DNA of 63,415 nucleotides, filler included, from Octopus bimaculoides (GCF_001194135.2; 6 parts of 6 records of this genome joined end to end with filler, not necessarily neighbours in it), one strand, 5' to 3'. Positions 10,115 through 60,637 are shown, counted from the first letter of the whole stretch. Notes: generated by a model from the letters alone, not told the origin. Program-made: numbers and translations.

Positions 10115-10171
10115 TCATCAGGTGGAGTCCAGAATATCCTTGTAGTTTCATACCTTTATCTCCAATATTAC
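10115..10171 (-). ncRNA. Non-circularly permuted hammerhead-like motif (slightly decayed)
   Basis: Minus: GUAAU-A-UUGGAG-10nt-GAA-ACUAC-..-CUCCAC-CUGAUGA; stem I 5/6 paired, stem III 4/5 paired; lies in a PLE-terminal-repeat-like segment ~9990-10330. Confidence 0.55.
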
Positions 10172-13084
10172 TTGAATCCAGCAGATGCCAGGGACTTAAG
10201 CTAAAAGCATTAAGCCTCTGGGAAAGGCAAATGAATGTATACAAGAATGAAAACAGGAATAGGAACAAAAACGAGAAAGCTGGAATTATACAAGTATGAC
10301 AGAATGCCTTTTGGCTATACAACAGAAGGAAACACTATTTTTTGTACACATATGAATACAAATAAGTAAACAACAGAAAGGGTATTTCGACTACCGAACA
10401 AATGTAACGTTATGAAATAGCAATGTAAGTGCAACAGATAAAGAATTATATATATATAGTAATAATAATAATTTGAAAGTCCTTTGTTCATTTATAAAAT
10501 GAAGATAGAAATTCATATTTATAGATTAAAATATAGGGATAATCTTTTAATACATTTTTTTTTTTTCTGCTTTATGCATGAAGTGTGCCTTATGGCACAT
10601 TTAGAATTATAAGATATTGCCTTATTGTTTTCAAAGATTATTGTTGTTGTTGCTGTGTTGATGCATGGGTATTATGCAAGGTACTACAATCATGGCCATC
10701 TCCATATATTCTCTCTACGGCATTGCATGTCTTTGGTTATACAATCCAATGTGCTCTTTGCTTCTCAAAATTGTTGGGCATATTTTAAGTGAGATTTGCA
10801 TGCAATTTCTGAAGGGCAAGTAACTATTTAGAGAGGAACCTTTGTTTTGCATTTCCCAAGTTGGTAATATGCAACTGAAAACATGAAATATCAACAAGAA
10901 GGTTTCAAGGGTACCAACCACCAAAGCCTTTTGGTTAATTCTGAAACATTTTAAGAAAACCAAATTTGTCACAGAAATGGAGAAAAAGTCAAAGAACGAA
11001 TGTTGTAACTGGGGAAGAGAGAAAATAGAGAGGATTCTATGAAGAGAATAAGGTATATTTAATGATTGGTTAATGAATCTCCTACAAACATGGTTTAGAA
11101 TGCATCAGAAGTTAAATGTCTCATTTGATGAATCATAAAGCTTCTCAATAAAAAAATTCATTGACAAGAGATATATTTTATGTGAGAAGGGCAAGTTTTT
11201 TTCTTGTTTTATGTAAGAGATGTGTGATATGTGATATTCATAAATTGTCCATTCAGACATGAAACTAGATGGTATCATATATACCTAAAACAATTTTATG
11301 TTGTTAACACGTTAATATCACATCAAGTGCATTTAGTGAAAGTGCTAATAGCATCGAATACATAGCATTTGTCATGATCAAAACCTATAGTTGATAACAT
11401 TATTATGGTCTCTTTGGACATCAAATAAAACTGTCACTATAATGTATTAATCTTTTAGTGAAGTCATTTTTCCCAGATATGCGCTGATAAAAATTGACTT
11501 GAAAACTGCAAAGACTGCACATGCATTTTAGAACTATCGACACTTTTTAGTATATAAATGCATATTTACACACATATATATACATATATAGGGTTAGCTA
11601 TATATCACTGTGTTCCTTCCAGTCAGGCACCTTTTTCTAATGAAAGAGCTCACTAGGTTATAGCAGTGATCATTCTGCAGTAAAAAAATTTCAAGACTAC
11701 TAAATGTGGCACCTTACTTATCCTTGATTCAGGATACCAATAACTAAAATCATTCTAGCAACAGATATCCATTCTTTTTCTATACTCCTTAAAATGCCAA
11801 ATGTTTAAGGTAGATCTATATTATCTAATATCTCCTCTCTGTGGAGAAATTAGCTATAAGCTATATTTCTAGCACTTTGAATGACCATGGCATGTAGAAG
11901 ATCTTTTACTGGCTCAGATATTATTAAACATACAAAGTTAATTTGAAAAAGCTGATTCAGAAATTGAACCAGGCTCTATGTCTTGGTTAACTAGGAGTGC
12001 ATACTATCATACTATCACATCATAAAATAGATCAGTCACACACATGTATGTATATATTTATGTGTATACATGTATGNNNNNNNNNNNNNNNNNNNNNNNN
12101 NNNNNNNNNNNNNNNNNNNNNNNNNNNNNNNNNNNNNNNNNNNNNNNNNNNNNNNNNNNNNNNNNNNNNNNNNNNNNNNNNNNNNNNNNNNNNNNNNNNN
12201 NNNNNNNNNNNNNNNNNNTATATATATATATATATATATTCTTTTAATTTTCTACTGGCTTCATGCCTTAGATTGCAGCTATATTGAAGGATTACATTCA
12301 ATGATTTTAGCCAACTATATCAATGTATGTAAGGCCATTGCCTGGAGCTTATTTTATCAAATAGGGTAAACAAACATAGTTCACCTGTATGTAAGGAGAC
12401 ATAACTTCCCACAAGAAAATAACAGGTGATATTTATCTTTGCCCCACTGATTTCTCTGAATGACAGATTTCTACAATAGTTTCTGTCCACTAAATTTCAC
12501 TTAGAACAATTTGATCAACTTGAGTTTATGATTGAAGATACTTGCCTAAGATACTGCACAGTTAAACTGATCACAGGATCAGGGAGCTACCAAATAAACT
12601 ACTTCGGCACATAACGACATCCATATCAATGTATCAGTGTGGGTGAGGGACAAGGGTGGGGGAAGATTTTTGTGGTCAAAATATCAGTTATTTTGACTGT
12701 ATGACCAATAGTTCAGAATGTTGACTTGAACTGAAAACACATGTTCAAGAAAGTTCTAGAAGGATGATATCATTTCCATTACAATGATGTTTCTTTCATT
12801 ATTGAACTAAAAGATAAAAATGTTTAATTAGGATGCTGTGTAAAAGTATTGATTTCGTTCCTTTATAAATAGTCACCTATAGTTAGTTATAATGCTAGAG
12901 AAAATGTTACAAGTCTACAATGATTTTTTATTTGATTGCTGTTCTTTTACTTTGTCTTCTAATTTCTAATTAATTATAGAGTGCCAAAAGTAGTTCTCAG
13001 CTGTATATGTGGGGGTTGGATATTCCTACTACATTAACTTTCTAGCTACAGTTTTCGAACGTTAATATTTCTGTTGCATGATAA

Positions 13085-13297
13085 GGTAGTGTGTTAGCAG
13101 GATCATTAGCATACCAGGCAAAATACTTAGTGGCATTTCATCCATTTTTATGTTCTGAGTTCAAATTCTGCCAGGGTTGATTTTTGCTTTTCTTGCTATC
13201 GAGGTCAATAAAGTAAGCACCAATTGAATATTGGGGCCAGTGTAATCAATTTACCCACTTCCCTTAAATTGCTGGCCTTGTGCCAAAATTTGAAACC
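13085..13297 (+). mobile_element. SINE family A, full length, CpG-decayed
   Basis: Head TTAGCAGGATCATTAGCA, core CTGAGTTCAAATTC, tail GCCAAAATTTGAAACC. Confidence 0.85.
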
Positions 13298-13720
13298 AAC
13301 TTTTCTGTTACATGAGATAACGAATTCTGAAACAAAACCAGGTGTGTTATTAAATTCCCTATTTCTTTTATTTCTTTACTTTTTTTTATTGAAATCATTG
13401 CCTTTTAACTACTTTATAATATCAATGATGCTGTAGAATGATTGAAGATCTGGAGTTACCTGAATGACTGATATTCTCACTGCTCTTGGATACACTACAG
13501 TGACTCTTTTAGGTGTCTACTTTTAGGTATCATTTCAGAACAGCAAAATGATAAAACCTGTGTTACTTATTTCCATTCCTTGCTTCTTTTAGTGGAAGCC
13601 TGTTATAATTTACTAATGGTAGATTGTGGAATTGTAGCCGTTGCTGTTTCATCTTAGGTCGACCCATATTAGCAGGCATATGGACATTAACGTTCCATGA
13701 CCATCTTGTCTTCATATATT

Positions 13721-13905
13721 GATTTCAAATTTTGGCACATGACCAGCAATTTCATTGAACCCAGTGTTGAACTGGTATTCATTTCATCGACCCAGAAAGG
13801 ATAAAAGGTAAAGTCAATCTCAGCAGAATTTGAACTCAGAGCATAAAGACAGATGAAATGCTGTAAGCAGTTTGTCTGGCATACTAACAGTTCTGCCAGT
13901 ATGCC
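13721..13905 (-). mobile_element. SINE family A
   Basis: Reverse-complement match to family A. Confidence 0.8.
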
Positions 13906-14033
13906 ACACACATCCTACAGTATGCCATACACAATACAGTGAAAATAAGAGCACCACAACAAACCACAGCACATAACCAATGCGCACAGAGCTGTGCTTG
14001 GTAGTGAAAGCATATGATAAGAATAAGACTACC

Positions 14034-14076
<43 letters not shown>
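13906..14076 (+). mobile_element. R4/Dong 3' end with (AAT)n tail
   Basis: AAGAGCACCACAACAAACCACAGCAC..GCGCACAGAGCTGTGCT matches the 3'UTR at 35080-35176. Confidence 0.75.
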
Positions 14077-14077
<1 letters not shown>

Positions 14078-14363
14078 GTTTCAAAGTTTGACACAAGACC
14101 AGCAATTTCAGTGCAGGCATAAAGTAAGCACCAATTGAATATTGGGGCCAGTGAAATCAATTTACCCCCGTCCCTTAAATTGCTGACCTCATCCCTTAAA
14201 TTACATCGATCCACCTAGTGTTCAACTGGTATTTATTTTATCAACCATGAAAGGATGAAAAGCAAAGACAGCCTCAGTGGAATTTGAACTCAGGACATAA
14301 AGACAGACGAAATACTGCTAAGCATTTTGCTTGGCCTGTCAACGATTCAGCCAGCTTACTACC
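14077..14363 (-). mobile_element. SINE family A with a 71-bp opposite-strand insert
   Basis: Minus-strand SINE interrupted at 14119-14189 by a plus-strand piece matching 13208-13278. Confidence 0.8.
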
Positions 14364-14892
14364 TGCCTGTCTTCGTATATTAGGGACCGCATAGTGCCAT
14401 GTAGTTGGCATCATTTGAATCAGATTCAGCTTTGGTTATTATCTGTTGTATATGGGGAGATCACATAAAGGTTTCTTCGTTGATTTTGCAATCTTTTATC
14501 CATGCATTTGTCTCCCATGCTTTTCTTCGTCGGAATTAATAATTTAGATATTACTTTTGTTCTTCATTAATTTCGCAGCTTTACTTAATGAAAATCACTT
14601 GGCTCACTGCATTAAGTACATTAATAAAATAACCACTTCACTATTAGCTTATTTATGCTGAAGGTGTCCCTTGGGCAATTTTCTGCACTTATACATTTTA
14701 GTTAATCACACCACTAAAGATTCAGTCACAAAAAATAAATATATATAAATCAATGAACACATATATATATACACACATGCATATATATCTATACATATGC
14801 ACGTATAGATACACACACACATATATACATATATATATATATATATATGATATATATATATATATGATATATATATGTATATATTATATATG

Positions 14893-14926
<34 letters not shown>

Positions 14927-15635
14927 TGCACACATATATAAATATATATATATATACACACATACATATTTATGTACACACACACACACACATGTATATG
15001 TATGTATATATATACACATGCACACACACATATATCCAGTCATTCGAAATGCTGCAGTAATGGTTGTTAGGGCAGCAAGTAGTAAATACAAAACACAGTT
15101 GCTAATTAGAATAAATTAGTTTGAAGAGATGTCTACTGATTTGAACAGGGTGTATTTGTTCAATAATTGTCGAATTTCTTTTTGTTTTGTCTTTTTCTAT
15201 CACAGTAGTTTCATATTTAGAAAATTTCATGCTTAGCTACATGCTTTGCATGTAGCTACACATCATTATTCATTATCATTATCATCACCAATCTCATCAA
15301 CAACATCATCTTGCAATATTAAAATGATGAAGTTCACTATTCAGTGAACCAACATTTGATCACTTCCTCATTGATATTATTGACATGAGGAAAGGGTAAA
15401 ACGCAAGTATCAATGAATTGAGGAACACACGGTATTGTATATATGTTTATCTATCTATCTATCTATCTATATACATATATATATATTTCATCATCATCAT
15501 CAGTCCACCCTCCATGCTAGCATGACCATGTTTGTGATGTATGTATATATGTATACATAGATTTCTAAAGGTATAAAACATATACACACACAGACATATA
15601 CATGCATGTACATAGATATGTTTATATATAGACTT

Positions 15636-15673
<38 letters not shown>

Positions 15674-15779
15674 TATATNNNNNNNNNNNNNNNNNNNNNN
15701 NNNNNNNNNNNNNNNNNNNNNNTTAATTAATTAANNNNNNNNNNNNNNNNNNNNNNNNNNNNNNNNNNNNNNNNNNNNA

Positions 15780-16000
15780 ACAACAGACGAGGACAGGTGA
15801 TGTAAACAACAAAAGGATGTATTAGTTTAACGCTTGCGAATAGAGAAAGTCTTTAACGTCTCGAGCTACGCTCTTCAATAGAAAGAATAAGGAGAAAAAC
15901 AAGGAGAAAATCATGGAGAAAAAAATTTGAATGTTGTGGTCAGCGATCTATCATGGCGACTGCCGGACAGAAAGTTCACACAAGAGAGCTAGGAAAACGG
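15780..16000 (-). mobile_element. PLE terminal-repeat-like segment with decayed type-I hammerhead (15850-15886)
   Basis: Minus: UCUUU-CUAUUGA-A-GAGC(GUA)GCUC-GAGAC-GU-U-AAAGA; stems intact, core mutated; a short homologue of this family lies at ~60840-60870. Confidence 0.55.
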
Positions 16001-16242
16001 GGAAATTGTTGCTTTTTCAGAAGACGAAAAAATAGTTATACTGTTCCATTACTTTTTACATTAACAACAGTTGCAGCTTAACAATAATACTTTGCATAAA
16101 ATCGTAACTCCATGCATGTATGATATTTTCAGTCAGAAATATTTTCGCAAAACTGTCGTATGTTGGACTTACTAGACTTTCGAAAAATGCCAAACCGGAG
16201 TGCTAAGGTTTCTACTAGTTCGCCGCCTTTAAAATAGTCCTG

Positions 16243-16402
16243 TCTACTCTAGGCACATAGCCCGAAATTCTCGGAGAGGGGCCCAGTCGAGTAGATCAAG
16301 GCAAAGTCGACCTCGGCGGAATTTGAACTCAGAACGTAAAGACAGACGAAATACCGCTAAGCATTTCGCCCGGCGTGCTAACGTTTCTGCCAGTTCACCG
16401 CC
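16243..16402 (-). mobile_element. SINE family A, CpG-rich, internally deleted
   Basis: GCAAAGTCGACCTCGGCGGAATTTGAACTCAGAACGTAAAG..GCCCGGCGTGCTAACG. Confidence 0.9.
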
Positions 16403-16454
16403 TTTAAAAGATAAGATTATATATGAGTGTATCTGTGATGACTTAAGTTACATC

Positions 16455-16990
16455 TCTTATTTTTTATCTATTTCAGCCATTGGACTGTGGTCATGCTGGA
16501 GCACCACCTGGAATGGTTTACTCGAACAAATCAACTCCAGTACATGTCTTTTTAAAGCCTGATACTTATGCTATTTCATTTGCCGAACTAATAATTCGCG
16601 TGGACATAAACAAACCGATACTTGTCGTCAAGCGAATGTGGTGGACAAACACAAACCGAAACAGGAACTCATATACATATATGGTTGCCCTGAGTCTAGA
16701 GCTGAAGACACTTACTCAAGGTGCCGCGTAGTGGGAACTGAACACGGAGTCACAAGGTTGGGAAGCAAGCTTTTTAACCACACAGCTACGCTTGCAATTT
16801 ACACCATTTTTCTTATATTTTAATTTTATCATACTTGTTTTTTTTTTAAAGCCCAGTACTTATTCTACCGGTCTCTTTTGCCGAAGTTACGGGGACGTAA
16901 ACACCAACTCCGGTTGTCAAGTGGTGGTGGCGGGGCAGAAACAAACACAAAGACACACACACATAGATATATGAATGCATATACATATAA
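16455..16990 (-). mobile_element. SINE family B, one full and one partial copy
   Basis: Matches 8170-8580. Confidence 0.8.
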
Positions 16991-16994
16991 GTAT

Positions 16995-17745
16995 ACAGAT
17001 TCGTTGTGTGTTGCGTTCCATTACTTGGTAAATGAAAAATGTATAAACAAACGACGTAGCGTATACTGAATGTAAAAAAGAAACGGGAGACATACAGAAA
17101 GTCCATAATTCTTCATCAGTTATCGACCAATGGTACTTTTCAGTTTCGCACCTTTAACGATAAGACTAAGTGCTTCCCAATTGGCGGTGCCCGCAAGAAA
17201 AAAACTGCTTTCTTGCGTAGAAGTAGGGACAAGTGTATGCAAAACGAAACAAGGTATGCAAAATGACACAGAGTGTGATTTAGGATGGTGGACGGGGACG
17301 AACAGTCGAACAAAATAGGACCTTGGGGCCAGGGAGACGAGAATAGTGGGTAACGCTTTGAAAAGGATGGAGAACGGAGAGACAGAATTTTTGATTGGTC
17401 AAATTTTTGATTGGACCAATCTAAGAAAGAAAGAAAAGACGAATTCGCCGCTGGTCATATGACAACAGCAGACACAGGAGAAATACAGCAGGGGGGGGGA
17501 GACAGCAGAAAGGGAGTAAGCAGAAAGGTTAGAATAGAAAAGTGAGAGAAATAAAAGGAGAAAAAATGAAGGCAAGAGAGTAAGAGAGACAGAGATAGAG
17601 AGAGAGAGAGAGAGAGAGTCACACGGGTATATAAAAAAACTTACTTGTTAATACAAATTCGGTGTGTGTTGCGTTCCATTACTTGATACATGAAAAAATG
17701 TATAAACAAATGACGTAACGGACACTGAATGTGAAAACAAACCAG
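16995..17745 (-). mobile_element. PLE-like non-coding unit bounded by a ~95-bp direct repeat
   Basis: ATACAGATTCGTTGTGTGTTGCGTTCCATTACTTG.. (~16995-17090) repeated at ~17650-17745; contains the motif at 17113-17185. Confidence 0.6.
17113..17185 (-). ncRNA. Non-circularly permuted hammerhead-like motif, core intact
   Basis: Minus: GCCAAU..UUAGU-C-UUAUCG-UUAAAGGUGC-GAA-ACUGA-..AUUGGU-CGAUAA-CUGAUGA-AG. Confidence 0.75.
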
Positions 17746-17759
17746 ATCATTTTTTTTCT

Positions 17760-18010
17760 TTGTCTCACCCTGTCACTTCTATTCTAGCCTTTCTACTTAC
17801 TCCCTTTCACTCTCTCTCTCTTGTATTCCTAGCCCTTCTCTTTCCCTTTCACCCACTTTCCTTTTTTTTTCTCTGTCACTCTCTCTTCCTGCTGTCTTTC
17901 ACCTGTGCCCACTAGTGTCACATGACCAGCAGCGAGTTCCCCTTTTTTCTTCCTTTCTTAAACTGGTCCCTTAGCTGACTAGTCGCACATTCTGTCTCTT
18001 CGTTCTTCAA
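17760..18010 (-). repeat. Diverged inverted copy of ~17340-17560
   Basis: Shared motifs GAGACAGAAT, GCTGGTCATNTGACA, GAAAGGGAGTAAGNAGAAAGGNTAGAATAGAA in opposite orientation. Confidence 0.65.
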
Positions 18011-18058
18011 AATAATTTCGAAGCGTTCCCCACAATTCTCGTCTCTTTGTGCTTAAGA

Positions 18059-18268: not shown

Positions 18269-18340
18269 TTTTTATGTTTCTCATAGGATATAGAAATAAA
18301 GGAATTAGAAAATATTTGGCCTTATTGTTGCTGAAGTTAA

Positions 18341-19661: not shown

Positions 19662-19703
<42 letters not shown>

Positions 19704-30578: not shown

Positions 30579-31347
30579 CAGGGTTTCTCAGCCAATTTCT
30601 ATCTACAGACCCTTTCATTACTATTTTATTCTGGTGGGCCCCCATAGTCATTTGTTGCTTAAAAACTAGTTTTATAGAAACTCCTTTCAAAATTCCTATT
30701 TTGTTTTTCACACATAAACTTGTGTAGGTTGAACAATGTAAAATGTCAGAGAAAGAAACCTAGCTGTTTCTTACAATACATACCAATACATAAATCTAAA
30801 GCAGTAGTTCTCAACCATTTTTTTTTATCAATGTACCCCTTTGATTACCATTTTATTCTGGTGGACCCCCATAGCCATTTGATGTTTAAAAACTAGTTTT
30901 ATAGCAACTTCTTTCACAATTCCTATTTTGTTTTTCACACATTAACTTGTTTAGGTTGAACCATGGAAAATGTTAGAGAAAGAAACCCAGCTGTTTCTTG
31001 CAATATATACATCGAAAGTAGGGGTTCTCAACCATTTTTTATCTATGGACCCCTTCGATTACTATTTTATACTGGTGGACCTCCATAGTCATTCGATGTT
31101 TAAAAACTAGTTTTATAGAAACTTCTTTCAAAATCTCTATTTTGTTTTTCACACATTAACTTTTGTAGGTTGAAATATGTAAAATGTTAGAGAAAAAAAC
31201 CCAGCTGTTTCTTGCAATAAACACCAATACAAACATCTAAAGCAATTTTTTCAGGGGCCCTAAAATGCTATTGTGGATCTCCAATTTACTATTTTGTTAC
31301 CCAGACACCCCAAAAAATATTATATGGACCCTGGTTGAGATCCACGG
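30579..31347. mobile_element. hAT-Charlie-type MITE with triplicated 5' unit
   Basis: TIRs CAGGGTTTCTCAGCC / GGTTGAGATCCACGG; flanks CTCTAGAT / ATCTAGAA (NTCTAGAN target type); three ~220-bp units start at 30579, 30802, 31019. Confidence 0.8.
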
Positions 31348-32224: not shown

Positions 32225-32952
32225 GAATGAGAGAGCAGTGCATGCTATCAAAGTGACACTGGGGTAAAATATACAAAGTCCAATATACCCATCATAACTA
32301 CGCGTCTGGTTAGGGTACATGCATCACAACCATATGTGCGCGACAATACCTGCTGTCATACCTATGACAACAGGTATTGTTTTAGTCTTGAGGTTCCACA
32401 TTCTTCCAATTGCTATTTTAAGATCTTTATACTTGCTTAGTTGTTGGTAGGTTTTGACAGATACATTTATGTCGATTGGAACAGTCATATCAATGAGAAG
32501 GAATGATTTTTGTCTGAAGACTTTCAGTATGATGTCTGGCCTATTCGCATCTCTCTTTCTGTCAGTTTGAATGGTGAAGTTCCAGAGGAGTGAAATATGA
32601 TAATTTTCAAGCACTGGAGATGGTTTGTGTTCCGACCAGTTTTTATCATGGGGCAGGTTCATGTTTTTGAAAATTACCCAGTGAATATATTGTGCTGCTC
32701 TATTATGCTTGTTGAGATACTCTGTAAGCGCAAGAAGACTGCACATGGAGACAACATGATCGATGGTCTCATTTTGTTTTTGACATACACGACATGTTGG
32801 GCTACTGACGTTCTTTAATATGTTGGCCTGGTAGTTCCTTGTATGTAGGTTTTGATCTTGGTCTGTTATGATAAACCCTTCTGTTTCTGATTCTAAACCA
32901 GAAGACACTAACTCTTGATGGGTAAGGGCTTTGTCAACATCGGCACTACTAG

Positions 32953-32996
<44 letters not shown>

Positions 32997-34398
32997 GGAT
33001 ATTTACCATTGAGAGGTTTTTCTTGCTATTTATCAGTAAGAATATCTGAGGCAGCAGTTTTAGCACGGGTTTTCATACGCTTAGCTTTTTCTCTGCTTGT
33101 TTTCAACACTTCTAATTCTAGGATTTGTTGTATTTGGAATTCACTTATACATTCCTTTGCCTGTTTTGTTACTGAGTATGAATGCTTTCCTGTTTTCATG
33201 GTTTGAAACAAGTTTTAACATCCAGTCATCAGTTTTTCAGGTAGGTGTTTAGGCCAATCGTAGCAATCTTCGTTGTTAATTCTCGGCAGATAAAGTCGTT
33301 CTGTATCTGCCTTAGGATGGTGCAATCTATGCCTTGTCAACAATTTTCGTATTTGTCTGTTAATTGACCAGTTAATAATATTGAAACTGTAAGTCACGTC
33401 TAAAGTATTGATTGCTTCGATCCTGTTTCTTGCATTCTGCTCTGTCCTGGGTATTACCCTTACCCTGATCCTTTCTCTCATCACTGAATGTTTAATTCCG
33501 TCCCCTTCTAATACCCCTAAGTATTTGTAGCTCTCTGCTTATTCTAATTCCTTTATGACATTCTGCTGGTGAAGATTAACATTGGATGTTTCTGTAATTC
33601 TTCTTTTGATAAAGGTAGCTTTTGCACATTTATCGAGGCCAAATTGCATCCTGATGTCATCAATGAATTGTTTAACAATCGCTAGTAAGCCCTATAGTTG
33701 TTAGTAATTTTTTTCAAAGAGCTTTAAATCATCCATGTAAATGAGATGGTTTATATTTTTATCAAACATATTATAACCGTATTCTACATCATCGAGCAAT
33801 TCTGAGAGAGGCATTAAGGTTAGACAAAAGAGGAGTGGTGATAAAGAGTCACCCTGGAAAATGCCTCATAAAATTCTTACATCTCCAGCATTTAGAGATT
33901 CATTGTCATTGTTCAACGTCAGTGTGGTTCTCCGTGATCTCATACTTACAGACAAGAAGCTTCGCAGAGTAGGTGTTATCTTATACCTTTCCAAATATTT
34001 CTTAATCCAGCTATGTGGTAGACTATCAAAATCATTTTTATAGTCTATCCAGGCCATTGACAAGTTTCTGTGTCGTTTATGATAATTTTCCAAGATCATC
34101 TTATTGATGAGTAGCTGATCTTTACAACAATAAGACATACATTTACATCCGTTTTGCGCATTAGCAAATATGCCACTTTCTATTAAAAGACTATAGGTAC
34201 ATGCAGACAAGACACATGCTAGTATTGTGTACATTGTTGTTAAGCAGGTCATGGTTCTATAATCTTTTGGTTCATTTGTTTCTTCATTTATTGGAAGTAG
34301 GAATGTTACACCATTAACTAGCCAAGAGGGAATCATACTAGGTTGTTGCAAATCATTGTTGTAAATTTTGTTAGCAATTCATGGCTCTCTGGGAAGGC
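32225..34398 (-). mobile_element. 5'-truncated R4/Dong-clade non-LTR retrotransposon (RT, CCHC knuckle, restriction-like endonuclease), disrupted
   Basis: AWIDYKNDFDSLPHSW, GIFQGDSLSPLLF, HLIYMDDLKL, CRVCQKQNETIDHVVSMC, RPDIIL..LLIDMTVP; frameshifts; (TAA)n on both sides. Confidence 0.92.
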
Positions 34399-37275: not shown

Positions 37276-39081
37276 TATACAGAAATCGTACAAATCCGAC
37301 ATCTGAGATTTCACATCATATTACAAACACAAAATGTATTCTAGTGCTGACTATAGAACCTCAATGTGGTCGCTCCAAATACTAAACCTGATAAAGAAAA
37401 GAATATTCTTTTTTTTTTTTTTTTGGCCTCAATTTGACCATGGTAGAACAGACAATATGTTGTTGTTTGGTCCAAATTTATCCAAATTAAACAAACAAAA
37501 TTGATCAAAGGCGTTCCAACCATAACTATCCGATCTTTTCTTTCAGATATAGAGTATCTAGGACTTCGTTATCTAATATATCATTTCTTCCTTTTAGAAT
37601 GAATTTCTGGTTTTATAGAAAATGTACTCTTGAAAACTGAAAATAGACAGAAGAAAATGGTGAAAACGTTTGCGTATGACTGTTTTTACTACATTTGAGA
37701 TACCATAGATTCAAAGAGATACTTGCGGGTTTCCTTTCTTATGACTCATTCCACACATTGAGATAGATCGCTCTCTATCACTCTCTAAAAAGATAGGGAA
37801 TGTGAGAGGAGTATTAGGTGTTCATTCTTTGAAAAGCCCCAAATTTCTTCCAAGCAAGTAGACATAAGCTCAAAAAAATGCATTCTAGTTGTGACCTTCC
37901 AATTTGTTTTAAGAAAGTAAGGCATGATTTGAGAGAGGTTTGGCTGCTGTTACTAACAATCAAATAGAAACAAATAAGCTTTCTCGTTGGCTTGTAATCC
38001 AATATTTTTTCACATTTAGCCACTGCGTTTGTGACTGTGAGTGAAATGAATTGGGAATAGAGACTTTGAGAAATACTCTTNNNNNNNNNNNNNNNNNNNN
38101 NNNNNNNNNNNNNNNNNNNNNNNNNNNNNNNNNNNNNNNNNNNNNNNNNNNNNNNNNNNNNNNNNNNNNNNNNNNNNNNNNNNNNNNNNNNNNNNNNNNN
38201 NNNNNNNNNNNNNNNNNNNNNNNNNNNNNNNNNNNNNNNNNNNNNNNNNNNNNNNNNNNNNNNNNNNNNNNNNNNNNNNNNNNNNNNNNNNNNNNNNNNN
38301 NNNNNNNNNNNNNNNNNNNNNNNNNNNNNNNNNNNNNNNNNNNNNNNNNNNNNNNNNNNNNNNNNNNNNNNNNNNNNNNNNNNNNNNNNNNNNNNNNNNN
38401 NNNNNNNNNNNNNNNNNNNNNNNNNNNNNNNNNNNNNNNNNNNNNNNNNNNNNNNNNNNNNNNNNNNNNNNNNNNNNNNNNNNNNNNNNNNNNNNNNNNN
38501 NNNNNNNNNNNNNNNNNNNNNNNNNNNNNNNNNNNNNNNNNNNNNNNNNNNNNNNNNNNNNNNNNNNNNNNNNNNNNNNNNNNNNNNNNNNNNNNNNNNN
38601 NNNNNNNNNNNNNNNNNNNNNNNNNNNNNNNNNNNNNNNNNNNNNNNNNNNNNNNNNNNNNNNNNNNNNNNNNNNNNNNNNNNNNNNNNNNNNNNNNNNN
38701 NNNNNNNNNNNNNNNNNNNNNNNNNNNNNNNNNNNNNNNNNNNNNNNNNNNNNNNNNNNNNNNNNNNNNNNNNNNNNNNNNNNNNNNNNNNNNNNNNNNN
38801 NNNNNNNNNNNNNNNNNNNNNNNNNNNNNNNNNNNNNNNNNNNNNNNNNNNNNNNNNNNNNNNNNNNNNNNNNNNNNNNNNNNNNNNNNNNNNNNNNNNN
38901 NNNNNNNNNNNNNNNNNNNNNNNNNNNNNNNNNNNNNNNNNNNNNNNNNNNNNNNNNNNNNNNNNNNNNNNNNNNNNNNNNNNNNNNNNNNNNNNNNNNN
39001 NNNNNNNGTCCGCCACTACATTCCTCCATGGCTAGATTTAATTTGCGTATACAAATTTAATCTGCGGTCCATGGGATGAGC

Positions 39082-39148
39082 CGTTTTAACGATGCGTCCT
39101 ACCCGAAGCTCGTCGAAACGCCGGTGTTAAAACGTGGGTAGCTGATGA
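39082..39148 (+). ncRNA. Non-circularly permuted hammerhead-like motif, core intact
   Basis: CGUUUUAAC-GAU-GCGU-C-CUACCC-10nt-GAA-ACGC-CGGU-GUUAAAACG-U-GGGUAG-CUGAUGA-AG. Confidence 0.72.
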
Positions 39149-39293
39149 AGTAGAATGTTCTCTATGTGGCTCGTGTGTTTTCTCGTCTACCTTTGTTTGC
39201 AATGTCCTGTACCCAGATATGCACCTATACATACAGGTGGATGTCGGTATGCACATACCTGTACGTATATATGCATATACTCATTTACTATTT

Positions 39294-40069: not shown

Positions 40070-40654
40070 TCATACACGCGATATACAAACAAACACGTTA
40101 TTCACAAACATACACTGTGCCCATAGACGCTATACATACATGCACACAAGTCATATGCAAACATACATACCTGCACAGATACATACATGCATACATTCAC
40201 ACACACACGTATGTACGTTCGTACATTTATTTCTCTGTGAGTTATGATTAAACAGTATGAATACATGCTTAATCGGCACGTCACTATAACGCTTCTGGTA
40301 ATGACTTTTTGATATCTGAGAGCTAAATATTATTTGCTCTGCAAAGAGCAATTACACCGACGTATCATCTATCTAAAAACACTTTCCAAAGGAATAAAAC
40401 TATTCAATATAATAAAAACTACTGTAAGCGACGAAGAGAAATTCTATTATACAGTCTTTACTGAAAAACCTGCGTATGAATGAAAAATCCAGATTTTTAC
40501 ATCAGTAGAAATAGAAGTGAAGAATGTTATTCAATCATGTCATATTTTCAGATAATTGACATATTTTGCTGATTCTTTTATATTTCTTTAGTAAATAACG
40601 TTTTATTTCGGAAGATTTTCCTAGATAATTTTTGTGCATATCAGTGGGGGTGGG

Positions 40655-40713
40655 GTGCGCATTGATGCCGTCGAGAGGTAGGCCCCGAAACGGCGCGCAT
40701 TCTCTCCTGATGA
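40655..40713 (+). ncRNA. Non-circularly permuted hammerhead-like motif, core intact
   Basis: GUGCGC-AUUGAU-GCCGU-C-GAGAG-9nt-GAA-ACGGC-GCGCAU-U-CUCUC-CUGAUGA. Confidence 0.72.
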
Positions 40714-41077
40714 TCCCATACACTTGCTGGCTTCCGGTATGCGGAGTTCTCGACTGCTAGCACTTGCATGTGCAAGTTGTTTGCAAGATAGCAGCCATAA
40801 TAAATGAGATTTTTTTACAGTCATATAATCCTATAATCACAATATTTTATTTTGATATATAATATTTTTAATGTTTGGGGGAAAAGTCGTGAAATATTCC
40901 GAAAGTGTTCATTAAACAAATAACCAACAGGTAAAACACTATTTAAAATGAGTAAAACATTATGTATGTGTGTATTTATGTATGTATGTATGCATGTGTG
41001 TATTTATGTATGTATGTATGTATGTATGTATGTATGCATGCATGTATGTATGCATGCATGTATGTATGTGTGTATGA

Positions 41078-49639: not shown

Positions 49640-49682
49640 GTTACTCTACCCAGACCTGAACTTGCAATCTGGGTAGAGTAAC
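49640..49682. repeat. Perfect 15-bp inverted repeat, 13-nt loop
   Basis: GTTACTCTACCCAGA / TCTGGGTAGAGTAAC. Confidence 0.9.
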
Positions 49683-52530: not shown

Positions 52531-52567
<37 letters not shown>

Positions 52568-52782
52568 NNNNNNNNNNNNNNNNNNNNNNNNNNNNNNNNN
52601 NNNNNNNNNNNTTAATTAATTAANNNNNNNNNNNNNNNNNNNNNNNNNNNNNNNNNNNNNNNNNNNNATATATATATATATATATAACATAAACATACAC
52701 ACACATATTTATGCGTGTGTGTGTATGTGTAGGTGGGTATGCCTGTGTGCAGAAATATATACGCTTTGTATGTGTCCGAAAA

Positions 52783-52959
52783 TGGCCCAAAATTTTTGGG
52801 GAGGGGACCAGTTGATTATATCGACGCAGTCCGCAACTGGTACTTAATTTATGAACGGCAAAGTTGACCTCGGTGGAATTTGAACTCAGAACGTAAAAAC
52901 AGACGGAATATCGCTAAGCATTTCGCCCGGGGTGCTAGCATATCTGCTACCTCGCCGCC
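52783..52959 (-). mobile_element. SINE family A
   Basis: Reverse-complement match to family A. Confidence 0.85.
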
Positions 52960-53377
52960 TCACCCTTTTATATATATTGAATATATATTCATCTTATATT
53001 GGATAAGTATTAAATATAATACGAAACTTATTAAAACTTCTTAGATATTGGCCTGTGGCTATATTTGGGATCCTCCTTCAACACTATATGGCGTTCAAAG
53101 TGACCCTGGTTACATAGAGTAGCCAGACTGGCATTTTATTGTTCTTAAATTTATAGAATGTCTACTTTGCAATTTCGTCTGGTTAGCAGTATTCTTATGT
53201 CAAACATATTAATATATGCATGTGCACATATTAAACATGCACACACACTCTTGCACACATATTATAATATAAATTAAAATGAATAATGAAATGAAAACAT
53301 TTGGCATCACCCATATATTTGTGCGTGTGCGTGTGCGCGTGCGTGTTTATACATATGTATATATATATGTGTGTATA

Positions 53378-53452
<75 letters not shown>

Positions 53453-53463
53453 ATATATACATG

Positions 53464-53505
<42 letters not shown>

Positions 53506-54028
53506 ATGGAGTCCCACATCGTTAGACGACGTATGGGGTTTCGACAATTTCTTACCGAACAACCACACAAATGATTTGTTTATAATGTACAGGTGCAACA
53601 TGTCAGACGTTGAAATTATCGCAGAGAAACGTGAAATGAAGTGTTTTGCTCAAGATGACAACGCACGAACCCACGAACACACAATCGTTAGTGCAACACC
53701 CTAACCACTAAGCTAAGCGCCTATATATTATATATACTCCTGTATGAAGTGCTAATTTATAGTATATTTCATACCAAGGACTACACTGGCAACAATTGAC
53801 CGTAGGTAACGGACCTTGGGGTCGCGTGAATGTGATTATGTTTATGTGCGTATGTATATACATAAAAATAATAAATATGTTGGGATTCATTCATTCGATT
53901 AAAATATTTTCAAGACTGCGATCCAGCATGGCCGCACTTTAATGACTAAAACAAGTAAAAGATAAAAATACATACATTCATGCTCACACACATATGTATA
54001 TGTACACACATACACACACATGTATGTA

Positions 54029-54062
<34 letters not shown>

Positions 54063-54907
54063 NNNNNNNNNNNNNNNNNNNNNNNNNNNNNNNNNNNNNN
54101 NNNNNNNNNNNNNNNNNNNNNNNNNNNNNNNNNNNNNNNNNNNNNNNNNNNNNNNNNNNNNNNNNNNNNNNNNNNNNNNNNNNNNNNNNNNNNNNNNNNN
54201 NNNNNNNNNNNNNNNNNNNNNNNNNNNNNNNNNNNNNNNNNNNNNNNNNNNNNNNNNNNNNNNNNNNNNNNNNNNNNNNNNNNNNNNNNNNNNNNNNNNN
54301 NNNNNNNNNNNNNNNNNNNNNNNNNNNNNNNNNNNNNNNNNNNNNNNNNNNNNNNNNNNNNNNNNNNNNNNNNNNNNNNNNNNNNNNNNNNNNNNNNNNN
54401 NNNNNNNNNNNNNNNNNNNNNNNNNNNNNNNNNNNNNNNNNNNNNNNNNNNNNNNNNNNNNNNNNNNNNNNNNNNNNNNNNNNNNNNNNNNNNNNNNNNN
54501 NNNNNNNNNNNNNNNNNNNNNNNNNNNNNNNNNNNNNNNNNNNNNNNNNNNNNNNNNNNNNNNNNNNNNNNNNNNNNNNNNNNNNNNNNNNNNNNNNNNN
54601 NNNNNNNNNNNNNNNNNNNNNNNNNNNNNNNNNNNNNNNNNNNNNNNNNNNNNNNNNNNNNNNNNNNNNNNNNNNNNNNNNNNNNNNNNNNNNNNNNNNN
54701 NNNNNNNNNNNNNNNNNNNNNNNNNNNNNNNNNNNNNNNNNNNNNNNNNNNNNNNNNNNNNNNNNNNNNNNNNNNNNNNNNNNNNNNNNNNNNNNNNNNN
54801 NNNNNNNNNNNNNNNNNNNNNNNNNNNNNNNNNNNNNNNNNNNNNNNNNNNNNNNNNNNNNNNNNNNNNNNNNNNNNNNNNNNNNNNNNNNNNNNNNNNN
54901 NNNNNNN

Positions 54908-54956
<49 letters not shown>

Positions 54957-55050
54957 GTGTGTATGTGTGTGCGTGTGTGTGTGTGTATGAGTGAGTGTGA
55001 GTCAAGTGCGCGTCAAGTGTAATTGCGATTATCTGTGCTACGACGTCCAC

Positions 55051-55092
<42 letters not shown>

Positions 55093-55099
55093 ATACGTC

Positions 55100-55169
<70 letters not shown>

Positions 55170-55620
55170 TGTACATGTATATGCATACATACTACATAAA
55201 CACATACATTCATATATTCACAATTCGTTATACAATCTAATTAAAAATGCAGGGCGTCGACAATTCTGCTATCTGTTGCTTTTCCATTTTTCCACCAGGT
55301 TGAGAAATCGGCACTGTGAGAAAGGAAAGGTTTAAACAGATGATAATTTAAACATGTAAACTGTCGGAGGCAGGAAAAAAATGCAAACGCAAATTTGACG
55401 GCTGTAGGGTATAGATGTTTAGACTGAAGTCGTATACTGCGACATTGTATACATACTATACACTCTACGAACAAAGTTAGGATATACGAATGTGTGTACA
55501 TGTGCGTGTGTGTAGTGTGTTTGCGTGTGTGTGTGTTTTGTATGTGTATGTACACACGCTACACACAAATATACATACATATACATATATATATATACAT
55601 ATACGTACAAACATATCTAT

Positions 55621-55652
<32 letters not shown>

Positions 55653-55921
55653 NNNNNNNNNNNNNNNNNNNNNNNNNNNNNNNNNNNNNNNNNNNNNNNN
55701 NNNNNNNNNNNNNNNNNNNNNNNNNNNNNNNNNNNNNNNNNNNNNNNNNNNNNNNNNNNNNNNNNNNNNNNNNNNNNNNNNNNNNNNNNNNNNNNNNNNN
55801 NNNNNNNNNNNNNNNNNNNNNNNNNNNNNNNNNNNNNNNNNNNNNNNNNNNNNNNNNNNNNNNNNNNNNNNNNNNNNNNNNNNNNNNNNNNNNNNNNNNN
55901 NNNNNNNNNNNNNNNNNNNNN

Positions 55922-55985
<64 letters not shown>

Positions 55986-56534
55986 TAGGAATGTATAAAG
56001 TCATAAGTGTATAGACAAATATAAAATACATACATACATACATATACATATATATATATATAAATGTGAGTTTGTGTACGTGCGTGTGTGTATGTGATTA
56101 TGTGTGTGCGCGCGAGCGTGTGTGTGCGTGTGTGTCTACATAAAAAAGAAATCAAAATATTTAAGTAAATTAATATGTAGAAAACATGCAGACCTGCTGT
56201 GAAGTTGACAGTTGAGAGCTATTATTAGAAGGATTGACATAAGTATGTATTTGTATGTACTGTATATATGATGTATGTATATAATTATACATCGGTATAT
56301 ATACACATGTCAGAGATGTGAAATGTATATACAGGCGCAGGCGTAAATGTGGGCAAGGAAGGTTGCTCCCCAACCAAATGGCTGTGGGTTCATTCTTACT
56401 GCATAGCGTTTTGGGTAAGCGTTTTCTTCTTCAGCACAGATCGACCAAAGGTTTATTTATAAGTGGATTTGAAAAAAGCCTGTTGTGTGTGTATGTATGT
56501 ATATATATATATATACATATAACTATATATATTC

Positions 56535-56738
56535 TTTTCTAATCTAGGCACAAGGCTCGACATTTTGGAGGAAGTGACCAGTCGATTAGATCGACTCCAG
56601 TATGCAACTGGTAGTTAATTTATCGAACCCAAAAGTATGAATGGTAAAGATAACCTCGGCAAAATTTGAACTCAGAACGTAAACACAGGCGAAATACCGC
56701 TAAGCCCGGCGTGCTAACGCTTCTGCTACCTCGCCGCC
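56535..56738 (-). mobile_element. SINE family A
   Basis: Reverse-complement match to family A. Confidence 0.85.
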
Positions 56739-56771
56739 TTTATATTTACATACATACACATATACATATGT

Positions 56772-56826
<55 letters not shown>

Positions 56827-56927
56827 NNNNNNNNNNNNNNNNNNNNNNNNNNNNNNNNNNNNNNNNNNNNTTAATTAATTAANNNNNNNNNNNNNNNNNN
56901 NNNNNNNNNNNNNNNNNNNNNNNNNNC

Positions 56928-57208
56928 AATATCAGTGAAGAATTTCACTGGAAAAGAAGATATAAGGTTTGCCAGGTTTTTGTCTCTCTCACCAAGGTCA
57001 TCAGCTGTCGAACGCCGACGAAGGGAAATAACCCTGAAATCCGGATACGTTCGTGCTGCTGGTCGAGGTGAGAGGGATAACTCCCTTGGCAAACAGGACA
57101 CAGTCGTGTGTCGATAAGCCAGCTGGAGGAGATGTCCTCCTGGGGCTAAAAGCAACAGTAACATCCACCCCTAGGGGTCAGCCACACTTAAGTGGCAATA
57201 TACTACAC
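56928..57208 (+). mobile_element. Second member of the retrozyme-like family (left end lost in gap)
   Basis: Reverse complement shares GATGTTACTGTTG.TTTTAGCCC.AGGA..ACATC...TCCAGCT with 5811-5860; same nested stems. Confidence 0.72.
57009..57052 (+). ncRNA. Minimal type-I hammerhead with a U4->C substitution
   Basis: CGAACG-CCGACGA-AGGG(AAAUA)CCCU-GAA-AUCCGGAU-A-CGUUCG. Confidence 0.78.
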
Positions 57209-57210
57209 TT

Positions 57211-57242
<32 letters not shown>

Positions 57243-57357
57243 TGGGTAGAACGTCACCAACAGTAAACAACATGAGATACGAAAACAAATGAGTTGAATA
57301 CGCAAACAAGGAAAGAAACAAATGGAAAACAGGACAAGTAACATAATAAATGACCCT

Positions 57358-57428
57358 TCCTCAGTTGTCGGCTGTCCATCTATTCCTCATTTCGAGCATT
57401 GAACGACAATATGAGTCTTCGTAGGCAG
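57358..57428 (-). ncRNA. Non-circularly permuted hammerhead-like motif, core intact
   Basis: Minus: CUCAU-A-UUGUCG-UUCAAUGCUC-GAA-AUGAG-15nt-CGACAA-CUGAGGA-AG; lies in a PLE-terminal-repeat-like segment ~57240-57480. Confidence 0.7.
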
Positions 57429-58048
57429 TTGCACCCACAAATACCAAAATAAAATTTGGGATTTATGGAGGGTCAAATGTGTGGGGCTGTATACATGTGT
57501 GTATATGCATAAGGTTTGCAAGTCTAACGGAGACCTCAAAATACAATTTAAGATCCACAGAGATCAGAACTTATCTACAGCTCATGGTGGTCCAAATCAG
57601 ATATGCTACCTATGTGGGTGTCTTTTCAATACATTGATTTAAAAGCCACATCAGACGCCATGATGGATCTAAGGTGTAAGTACAAGAGGTGGTTAAACTC
57701 TTTTTTTGTGTGTGTGTATATAAAGTGTATATATATATGATAGGAAAAGGCCAGCATTTCCCGTGATCGGAATGTCAGCCGTCTACAGCTGAGTTGAATG
57801 GAGCAACCTGACCCCTAATCCACTTGAACGCACGCCTTCACATATACATACTGTACATTTACACCGTATATATATTAGTTACTATTTAGCAGCAGTGTTT
57901 ATTCCAGATAACAATGGTTTTTGCATTCGTTATTATATAACTGCACTGTTTATACCAGATAAGAACGACTATTTGTATTAGTTACTATATAGCTAAGGTG
58001 TTTACGTAACATAGCCATTGGCTTTTAGTATTACTATAGTTGCAGTAA

Positions 58049-58260
58049 GGCAGTGAGCTGGCAGAATCGTTAGCACGCTGAGCGAAATGCTTAGCGGTAT
58101 TTCGTCTGTCTTTACGTTCTGAGTTCAAATTCCGCCGAGATCGACTTTGTCTTTCATCCTTTCGGGGGCGATAAATTAAGTGCCAGTTCCGTACTGGGAA
58201 CGATCTAATCGACTGGCTCCCTCCGCCAAAATTTCGGGCCCTGTGCCCAGAGTACAAAAG
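58049..58260 (+). mobile_element. SINE family A, full length, CpG-rich
   Basis: Best-preserved copy: A-box-like GGCAGAATCGTTAG, B-box-like GAGTTCAAATTCC. Confidence 0.9.
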
Positions 58261-58433
58261 AAATATCGATAGTGTTTGTTTATACCACACAAAATGATTC
58301 TCCTTGTATCCGTCCCTACGATTCCGTTATTCAAACTACAAATCAATTGTTGTTTGTATAAGTTACAATATATTTTGCATTACTGTATCAGTAACAAAAT
58401 ATCTCTCGGTATCTTTCACTAAATTTCCTTCTA

Positions 58434-58590
58434 TCAGGTCATCCCATAAGTTCTGTCCGAATTTTGAATAAAGAAAACAAGTGATCAAATGTTATATTTA
58501 ATTGAAATTTAATCATCAGTGTACTTTCCCTGATTATCTATGACTTCCTTAAAAAAGGTAAAATCGGACAGAACTTATGGGATGACCTGA
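58434..58590. mobile_element. 157-bp Tc1/mariner MITE
   Basis: Perfect 27-bp TIR TCAGGTCATCCCATAAGTTCTGTCCGA; TA on both sides. Confidence 0.92.
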
Positions 58591-59199
58591 TATTTTTCAC
58601 CATAACAATTACCTTAGGAAACTGTTACAGTAAACCATACTTTACTCGAATCCTTGCTTCCAGGTCAGGTCAGGAATGTTCTGCTACAGGTATCATATCA
58701 TTTGATACTTCCTGTTTCATCGTTAAATGACCAGCAATGACACCAGTTCCTCCACCTCGCTCGCCAAGTAAGAAGGGTGCTGTGGACATTCTGCAGGACT
58801 AAAGACAAGACCTGTCATAGGACGGATGAGCTCATTTTAAGCTTACGGTCATCCAAACGATTGGTGTCTCGTAGAAACACCATGCCTGGGAGTTGGTGAA
58901 CCGTGCAGTTGGTTCAACATTGACGCCATGAAAGCTCCAATGAAAGACGTACTGTGCTCTCGAGTTGGAATCGACGTCCGCGAGTGAAGGAGAACGAGAA
59001 GAGAAACCTTGCTTTGTTCCCTTAAGCCCTGAGCGCCTTGGCGGAGTCATCTGCGGGAGTATTGTGGCATACGGCGTGCCTTGACTAATTTTAGACCTGG
59101 TTGAATTTTTTTCCAGAAAGAGAGGCAGAACGATAGAAAGGCAGCGACAAAGGCAGCGAGAAATAGAGAAAAGTCAAGCTTAGCAGAGGACTGATACTT

Positions 59200-59320
59200 T
59201 ATTTATCGACCCCGAAAGAATGACAAGCAAAATTAACCACGGTAGAATTTGAAGTCAGATTATACGGAGTCGAAACGATCACCGTAAAATAATCTGACTC
59301 TCTAACTACTCTGCTATTGG
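59200..59320 (-). mobile_element. SINE family A, degenerate
   Basis: TTTATTTATCGACCCCGAAAGAATGA..AGAATTTGAAGTCAG. Confidence 0.65.
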
Positions 59321-59356
59321 CTGTCTGCCTCTATATATCTGTCTGTGTGTCTCTCT

Positions 59357-59397
<41 letters not shown>

Positions 59398-59407
59398 NNN
59401 NNNNNNN

Positions 59408-59451
<44 letters not shown>

Positions 59452-60570
59452 GTACTATGTCCCCCTCTGGCTATACTGGTTACTATATCTCTAGTGCTTT
59501 TACCACGCAACAAAGTCTCTCCGTATCATTTAACACAGGTCCAAGTTTTATTCTACACATTTTTTTTTAATATTTATTTAATGAAATCTAAATTACTTGT
59601 CTGTTCCTCTCATATAACCTATCATAAAACTATTTAATTCACCTAAATAACCCACTTAGTTGACAATATTTGGTAGAGGGAAATTTTCTATTCCACTGCC
59701 ACTCCATATAAAATCAACGGCTGAAACTGATTGTTCTGAAATTAAACGCCGATTTCCTTAACAAAATCTCAGCAGCCATCTTTGCAGAAAGAAATGCTGA
59801 ACGTTGAGAGTACTGTACGAGGTCAATATAGCAAGAACGAAAGTGGTTTGAGAATCTTTTTACGTTAGATGGAATTAAGAAATAAAAGACGCCCATCTGC
59901 CGGTAATTGTTCATTATTTACAGCCGGTGAACAGTCTTAGAAGAGTTTAAACTTTAATCTATCAGAGACGGCTGCAGTTGCCATTGCAGTGTTTATTTAC
60001 CGAATACATACAATAGGATCGATATTCGGCTATGATTAAAATGGCCAGTAACAATATCAGGCAACATTATAGTATTGAATTCGAAGAAACTTGAGCATTA
60101 ATGATATTAGCAATAATTCGCTTAGACTTAGCAATTAAGAAGATTTACAAGAATTTCTTTATTAATCTTGATTCTAGTCGGAATAATATTTTGAAAAGCA
60201 TTCATTACAATATTGTTCAGAGACTATTCAACAAGAGGAATATAATCCGTATGTAGAAATTTATTCAATAATTCTATATAAATCTTACGCCGTTTTTGTT
60301 TTAATGACAACAGAGGAATGGGCTTCTGTGAGACATCGATATTATATATAATTTATTCTACCTCAATCCACTTTGAATATTGTAGATGGTTTTACCATAG
60401 CCATGGGTTCGATATATACATATACATATACGTACATACGTATAAATTTATATATAAATAATACAAAATGGGACAAGAACACAAAACATCCAGGTCATAC
60501 AAGGAAAGGACAAAAAACATCCAGATAGACGATACAAAGAAAACAAGGACAGGTCATTCAGAGTTTTCTT

Positions 60571-60637
60571 TCCTCGGTCGAGTTCCAGATTATCCTTGCA
60601 ATTTCGGCTGGTTATACTCGTGATTGCTCCAATCTGG
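60571..60637 (-). ncRNA. Non-circularly permuted hammerhead-like motif (U4->C, one stem I mismatch)
   Basis: Minus: CCAGAUU-GGA-GCAAU-C-ACGAG-11nt-GAA-AUUGC-6nt-AAUCUGG-AA-CUCGA-CCGAGGA; lies in a PLE-terminal-repeat-like segment ~60455-60780. Confidence 0.6.

Follow-up and report, generated by a model that had tools for sequence, protein, structure and literature searches.

Hammerhead-like motifs with a split block C at repeat ends in Octopus bimaculoides: a likely new wiring of a known ribozyme

Non-circular hammerhead ribozymes are already known, and so are hammerheads carried by Penelope-like elements (PLEs). A stretch of Octopus bimaculoides DNA (GCF_001194135.2; 63,415 nucleotides, six record parts joined with filler; hereafter the window) holds six hammerhead-like motifs in a non-circular order, and raises the question of whether these are self-cleaving RNAs and, if so, how they are wired and what elements carry them. 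Judged from sequence, the six stretches are likely a new wiring of the known ribozyme. The intact motifs are probably single-molecule hammerheads, predicted to cut 3' of H17 and likely to mark the 3' ends (pseudo-long terminal repeats, pseudo-LTRs) of PLEs of the Naiad type.

Eckert et al. (2023; PMC10085705) divide the hammerhead into three blocks, S, G and C, assumed to be uninterruptible, so that six permutations are possible; this paper and the others cited by PMC number are used for those parts of their text that were available. Block S is the stem III 5' strand, U, H and a stem I strand; block G is the linker, GAAA and the stem III partner; and block C is the stem I partner followed by CUGANGA. 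The initial annotation had placed motifs in the order S-G-C at 10115-10171 (-), 17113-17185 (-), 39082-39148 (+), 40655-40713 (+), 57358-57428 (-) and 60571-60637 (-). Inspection of the sequence confirmed all six, and the stem I and stem III sequences are exactly as quoted there. The claim of hammerhead core elements in a non-circular order also stands, with the core C3-U4-G5-A6-N7-G8-A9, G12-A13-A14, A15.1-U16.1 and H17 exact in five motifs and altered in that at 60571 (U4C); the circular order C-G-S of types I, II and III is found in none. Mutual dissimilarity was true of the 40655 motif, which is unrelated to the rest, but not of two pairs: 10115 and 60571 align, including the upstream flank through the TA run (z 8.3), and 17113 and 57358 score z 6.6. 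Stem sequences differ among the families yet remain complementary.

The same annotation had allowed stem II at most one pair. This proved too low: stem II has 5-7 base pairs (bp) once a G-starting 5' strand (II5'), situated 35-43 bases upstream of G12 and immediately before helix P0, is paired with the linker before GAAA. With this strand, 5/5 pairs form in four motifs and 4/5 in the other two; the bases directly after A9 give 0-3/5 pairs only. The R10.1-Y11.1 pair is G-C in five motifs and G-U at 10115, with G10.1 contributed by the 5' end. P0 (4-10 bp) joins the strand after II5' to the strand before the stem I partner (I'), and by analogy would be the stem I/II interaction (docking) helix known from hammerheads. 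Folding flank and tail as two strands gave a hairpin, P5, in five motifs and a flank-tail pairing, P6, in all six; P6 begins at the first base past A9 in four motifs (17113, 40655, 57358 and 60571), whereas in 39082 and 10115 it starts a few bases farther from the core. The full order is P6a - P5 hairpin - II5' - P0a - III5' - U-H - I - II3' - GAAA - III3' - P0b - I' - CUGANGA - P6b. We infer from established hammerhead structure that P6, P5, P0 and III nest and that stems I and II are pseudoknots. Block C is thus predicted to be split, with P6 and P5 lying between A9 and G10.1. The six motifs are as follows.

39018 to 39158, plus strand: the best-preserved motif, member of a high-copy family; P6a 39018-39025; P5 hairpin 39026-39074; stem II 5' strand 39075-39081 (G10.1 = 39075); P0a 39082-39091; stem III 39094-39097; H17 = 39098, predicted cut 3' of it; stem I 39099-39104; stem II 3' strand 39108-39114; GAAA 39115-39118; P0b 39125-39134; stem I partner 39136-39141; CUGAUGA 39142-39148; P6b 39149-39158.
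17090 to 17240, minus strand: intact motif; P6 17240-17219 with 17112-17090, interrupted; P5 17217-17192; stem II from G10.1 = 17190 (5 bp); P0 17185-17180 with 17131-17126; H17 = 17164; G12 = 17147; core 17119-17113.
40644 to 40719, plus strand: compact motif without P5; P6 40644-40649 with 40714-40719; stem II from G10.1 = 40652 (5 bp), a G run permitting a second register from 40647; short P0; H17 = 40672; G12 = 40687; core 40707-40713.
57351 to 57475, minus strand: motif with weakened stem II (4/5 pairs, from 57434) and weakened P0; P6 57475-57469 with 57357-57351 (7 bp); P5 57468-57435; H17 = 57410; G12 = 57393; core CUGAGGA 57364-57358.
60555 to 60697, minus strand: motif with the U4C core CCGAGGA 60577-60571 and an A-A mismatch at the stem I base; stem II 6 bp from 60643; P0 8 bp; P5 60679-60646; P6 60687-60682 with 60570-60565; H17 = 60622.
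10088 to 10242, minus strand: decayed motif related to 60571, with mismatches in stems I, II and III; P5 10220-10189; P6 10242-10227 with 10104-10088; H17 = 10166; G12 = 10149; core 10121-10115.

Read by eye, P6 of the 39082 motif consists of 2+6 bp flanking a 2-nucleotide bulge, of which the two-strand fold retains 6 bp. The motifs at 10115 and 60571 are decayed, both with a stem I mismatch beside the cleavage site; 10115 also has an A-C mismatch in stem III and further mismatches in stem II. The 60571 motif has the core change in addition. Both are probably dead or slow.

The window is AT-rich, with many microsatellites and gaps, and the motifs might be chance likenesses in AT-rich repeat tails. 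A descriptor of the claim as first made (exact core, perfect stem I of at least 5 bp, stem III of at least 4 bp) found four motifs (17113, 39082, 40655 and 57358) among 31 exact CUGANGA cores, against 2 matches in total across 500 block-wise dinucleotide-shuffled windows. When the 5' stem II strand was required, a strict descriptor found three window motifs, against none in 60 shuffles. A tolerant fixed-geometry descriptor, allowing mismatches and requiring the 5' stem II strand, found the six motifs only, with no match in 170 of 200 shuffles, one in 28 and two in 2; this result is partly circular because the descriptor was tuned on the six. Partner permutations point the same way, as 3 of 720 assignments of stem II strands, and 6 of 720 for P6, were as stable in duplex energy as the true pairing, the true one included in each count. 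A looser descriptor that allowed wide gaps and a mismatch in each stem was discarded because it gave 10 false window matches besides the six, a point in favor of chance. In metagenome, viral and prokaryote collections scanned with a pattern fixing only core and stem II, the strict setting passed 7, 0 and 2 loci, respectively, among the matches listed, and the two among 120 prokaryote matches likewise speak for chance. However, the tolerant setting, with stems I, III and P0 required, passed 13/117 metagenome loci (a single family), 0/18 viral and 0/120 prokaryote loci among the matches listed, and both the shuffle controls and the covariation across families contradict chance. From shuffles and partner permutations, chance resemblance is excluded for the motifs, and we regard this explanation as practically negligible.

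The 13 metagenome copies, together with a diverged copy (L106), form one coral-type family from two assemblies that shows all six helices and by eye resembles Acropora Naiad ends. All 14 copies are short ends, and no family open reading frame (ORF) was found beside them. Under the six-helix model, applied to the 11 of 14 copies with enough flank, 92.4% of 502 cells are paired, compared with 27-48% in slid controls; a four-helix version was run on all 14. The copies are close relatives falling into two subfamilies, and pairs changed on both sides number six (three in P6, two in P0, one in stem I). In one metagenome locus (L069) the element end recurs some 700 bases farther downstream as a second copy, at 1015-1100 (+), which is 5'-truncated and starts within the motif, not at the cleavage site.

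With 5664 DNA contigs, the 39082 family is abundant, and many of its reads are at least 95% alike. It was followed in RNA in three unstranded runs (2214, 1795 and 1424 reads; about 6% of each run sampled), with both strands represented in equal numbers. N7 (39146) is the sole core variant reaching at least 5% among the variants listed. At position 39077 about two thirds of the reads have C and 24-33% have A, and at the partner position 39112 27-31% have U, in all three runs; read linkage aside, this would be consistent with a stem II pair that occurs both as C-G and as A-U. Two of seven distinct DNA joints exit the element exactly at H17 (39098), rejoining at 39154 and 39200, with one contig each. 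They could reflect template switching onto a cleaved end, and were considered too thin to be used.

A constrained fold, in which only the core nucleotides and the strands of stems I and II were kept unpaired, recovered P5, P6, P0 and III in 17113, 57358 and 60571, and largely in 10115. Several results nevertheless weigh against a ribozyme wired in this way. The same constrained fold gives another P6 register in 39082 and no P6 in 40655. Unconstrained folds adopt other shapes, and their stability does not exceed that of shuffles (z -1.4 to +0.4); this is to be expected of folding that leaves out pseudoknots, but also shows that competing folds exist. In the coral-type family the count of changed pairs is not above shuffles (81 of 500 reach it), and stem II, a helix fixed by the search pattern, shows no two-sided change. 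In the three RNA runs there is no pile-up of read ends and no depth step at 39098, a test of low power because both strands and decayed copies are mixed; reads likewise showed nothing for an Anolis PLE hammerhead known to cleave in vitro in the presence of protein (PMC11167929). Finally, the tails of 57358, 10115 and 17113 also pair 4/5 with the linker at a +1 shift. Taking stem II from the tail, as in a true SGC hammerhead, was rejected as a general model, since it does not work for 40655, 60571 or the coral family, in which the tail instead pairs with sequence upstream.

Competing folds and missing RNA ends at H17 would also be expected if the RNA misfolds alone and cleavage needs a partner, either an element protein acting as chaperone or a second copy forming a dimer or exchanging strands in a tandem transcript. 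Other PLE hammerheads are indeed dimeric or protein-dependent (PMC4209133, PMC11167929). The initial annotation had offered a pseudoknot or action in trans or as a dimer, and had considered that P0 beside stem I strains a monomer fold. That concern loses its basis because II5', P5 and P6 had been overlooked, and P0 corresponds to a required interaction helix in the SGC ribozymes tested. All helices can form inside one copy, the short palindromic stem typical of dimers is absent, and monomeric SGC and CSG ribozymes cleave during transcription (PMC10085705). We consider dependence on a partner quite improbable, and favor cleavage by a single molecule.

Comparison with published models of permuted hammerheads identifies the block order as type SGC. 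The statement in the initial annotation that the Weinberg lab had described such permutations was right, but their sources are metatranscriptomes, soil metagenomes and one bacterium, and not the vicinity of PLEs. According to the available text of PMC10085705, examples of SGC, CSG and GCS cleave; SGC and CSG ribozymes with the same four helices do so in vitro at the predicted site, and cleavage requires the fourth helix, which connects the distal ends of stems I and II. SGC was there obtained from metatranscriptomes alone, with none in genomes of known organisms, where permuted hammerheads amount to one doubtful bacterial case. With type SGC (HRIMA-1 and variants) the window motifs share block order, core, a short linker from stem I to stem II, the helix joining the far ends of I and II, and two pseudoknots. 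In contrast, SGC has its stem II strand 3' of CUGANGA, whereas the window form has it at the 5' end, with P6 and P5 between A9 and G10.1, so that block C is interrupted. The published search patterns call for G and stem II directly after CUGAUGA or CUGAUGAU, and cannot match the window form because stem II is demanded right after CUGAUGA(U).

CSG-1 and CSG-2 come from DNA of soil metagenomes and have cleavage rates of 0.004 and 0.026 per min (PMC10085705). They have the same block ring and the same junction (II5', one base, P0a) as the window form, but their ring is opened between stem III and P0b, block C is whole, and P5 and P6 are absent. The minimal or dimeric type I hammerheads of PLEs also lie in terminal repeats, and their stem II commonly begins at its 5' end with an unpaired base; however, they have the circular order C-G-S and a stem III so weak that a dimer or protein is required, as opposed to the full stems of the non-circular window form (PMC4209133, PMC11167929). 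One motif of this usual PLE kind, a canonical minimal type I hammerhead, lies in the window at 5933-5975 (-), with a 5-bp stem I, CUGAAGA, a 4-5 bp stem II and a 2-bp stem III with palindromic loop. Both wirings thus occur in this genome.

In the window, as in two related loci, every Rfam family stayed below its gathering score. Around 39082 there was no hammerhead at E up to 10, and the best 150 of 217 matches were sub-threshold, microsatellite-driven microRNA matches only. A literature search, with subscription papers mostly outside its reach, returned neither permutations of this kind in PLEs or animal genomes nor a description of a split block C. The split form is not described in the available parts of PMC10162972, PMC7936874, PMC3088659, PMC6765202, PMC13725137 and PMC13159263, or in the main text of a 2026 retrozyme preprint as far as accessible. 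PMC13725137 cites Weinberg et al. 2015 for hammerheads "with additional helices or alternative permutations", and that work may bear on P5 and P6.

How could such a molecule work? G10.1, not joined to A9, would arrive from the 5' end, and P6, by pairing the tail back to the flank, would together with P5 hold it beside A9. This is a step of the core where one-nucleotide insertions, for example U, are known to be tolerated (PMC10085705, PMC8557442, PMC4209133). SGC, CSG and the window form could then be seen as three openings of one block ring. On this structural model it is quite probable that in the intact copies P6 and P5 replace the covalent link between A9 and G10.1 and that the monomer cleaves. 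Other PLE hammerheads suggest, by analogy, that the cut would serve to process transcripts of the element that are tandem or read-through.

The link to Naiads comes from published consensus sequences. Craig et al. 2021 (PMC8557442) reported Naiads to be without canonical hammerheads, with 10 "core" and 8 "half-core" flags, and described some with a core or half core whose second half lies 35-50 bases off on either side. We searched their consensus file, in its available parts, for core words and read the matches by eye. Of 54 Naiads, at least 10 have the window's form at the 3' end: a ctenophore entry whose stem I has only 2-3 bp, one entry from Clytia, three from Acropora, two from Octopus in which P6 is weak, an arthropod entry in file part 19, and two entries in part 12. 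Eight further consensi end in type CSG with P0, three of them named Nippostrongylus families and five assigned to other nematode entries by file position; CSG-1 and CSG-2 may themselves be nematode Naiad ends. In the remaining 36 no motif was readable by eye. These counts are lower bounds because words split at line ends are missed. Two entries in parts 25-26 share another conserved 3' motif that lacks CUGANGA, possibly another structured RNA or ribozyme. In several arthropod entries (parts 16-19) a P0-like helix encloses CUGANGA, with blocks S and G unplaced by eye; these are possibly further wirings.

It might be argued that the fold is kept as a signal for protein binding or reverse transcription, and that helices between A9 and G10.1 disable the core. 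Our literature search gave no natural hammerhead with helices at this site, and insertion of the Anolis element in vitro did not need cleavage (PMC11167929). From ctenophore to octopus Naiads, however, variation falls on N7 and H17 and the catalytic positions stay constant (by eye, in the available consensi), the pattern expected of selection on catalysis. A fold without cleavage is thus very improbable, and self-cleavage is the reading that we retain.

Some features around the motifs are of a kind known from PLEs. Beside the 17113 motif, the only one of six with this arrangement, lie a partial tandem of the pseudo-LTR type and an inverted copy matching the inverted 5'-truncated copies described for PLE insertions (PMC8557442).

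17651 to 17737, minus strand: upstream direct copy of the tail 16993-17078, 88.5% alike over 87 nucleotides.
17747 to 18045, plus strand: inverted copies of the body parts 17334-17492 and 17508-17569, upstream and adjoining the tail copy.

In four of six motifs a TA run starts 112-148 nucleotides past A9; a TA run at 60-200 nucleotides is found for 10.8% of background positions, and the motif interval was chosen after the fact. Loose read ends near 39285-39289 also include TA runs. Naiads favor (TA)n targets (PMC8557442). The window elements resemble that clade in the 3'-terminal placement of the motif and in (TA)n ends, and at 17113 possibly also in the partial tandem with its inverted copy. 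Just beyond the TA run that ends the 10115 element lies a 154-base inverted repeat (9626-9779 and 9815-9968, 97% alike).

Other findings count against assigning the six to Naiads. A PLE would carry upstream an ORF for its reverse transcriptase or GIY-YIG domain, and the marks of a Naiad protein are N-terminal GIY-YIG, CxC and DKA motifs and a reverse transcriptase with an insertion in the fingers. No PLE protein was detected by Pfam in 9 frames upstream of 10115, 17113 and 57358, and no sequence match links any of the six to a named Naiad. A stretch at 10600-11700 (-) that by eye looked like reverse transcriptase gave one sub-threshold, unrelated Pfam match, and phmmer returned only two spurious repetitive proteins; this reading was dropped. 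No ORF was found beside any motif checked, the upstream frames of 40655 and 60571 having been read by eye only, and 39082 adjoins an assembly gap. The six copies appear to be short, 5'-truncated element ends, for which a missing upstream ORF is expected. The proposal that the motifs sit in PLE terminal repeats is supported by layout (tandem and inverted copy at 17113, TA-run ends, a high-copy family) and by the architecture shared with Naiad consensi, but not by a PLE protein; Naiad membership is accordingly read from architecture.

The same lack of an ORF would suit carriers of another kind, with identical fold and cleavage, namely another PLE clade or non-autonomous, retrozyme-like elements using a PLE in trans. 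Craig et al. call cephalopod Naiads old remnants (PMC8557442), yet the 39082 family is abundant and many of its reads are nearly alike. This alternative is nonetheless unlikely, given that, by eye, the same architecture stands at Naiad 3' ends across phyla, that TA-run ends fit Naiads, and that the non-Naiad PLE motifs in the accessible supplement of PMC8557442 are canonical type I. Judged from architecture, the carriers are probably Naiads.

Taken together, we lean slightly toward a broader picture in which Naiads across animals carry non-circular hammerheads, namely the split-C form as a seventh wiring and CSG in nematodes, with ends that might circularize. The seventh wiring would place one or two whole helices between A9 and G10.1, in ctenophore, cnidarian, arthropod and cephalopod families. 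Both wirings would be ring openings that tandem pseudo-LTR copying could produce. More speculatively, the ends of a unit-length RNA might re-form the whole ribozyme and ligate into a circle, which is possible because four helices (II, III, P0 and P6) bridge the cut.

If correct, this would answer a point left open by Craig et al. 2021, the great success of a Naiad clade without hammerheads, and would weaken their idea that hammerheads merely parasitize PLEs. Non-circularly permuted ribozymes would gain a home in animal genomes, at high copy number, and the split block C would break the assumption behind the count of six permutations. Current search patterns and Rfam models miss this class because it would break the assumption of indivisible blocks. 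The model also predicts a catalytic core that tolerates helices between A9 and G10.1, which would be useful for ribozyme design.

The window contains other repeats. A broken non-long-terminal-repeat retrotransposon ORF at 32324-34378 (-) matches Pfam RVT_1 (E 4.5e-19) and, weakly, zf-RVT; it is unrelated to the motifs, and its C-terminal motifs presumably resemble those of the restriction-like endonuclease clade. A tandem repeat with a period of about 227 bases occupies 30580-31244. Many copies of a dispersed repeat resembling a short interspersed nuclear element, about 150-230 bases long and 70-90% alike, are present, among them those at 5384-5743, 13062-13299, 56519-56744 and 58025-58273.

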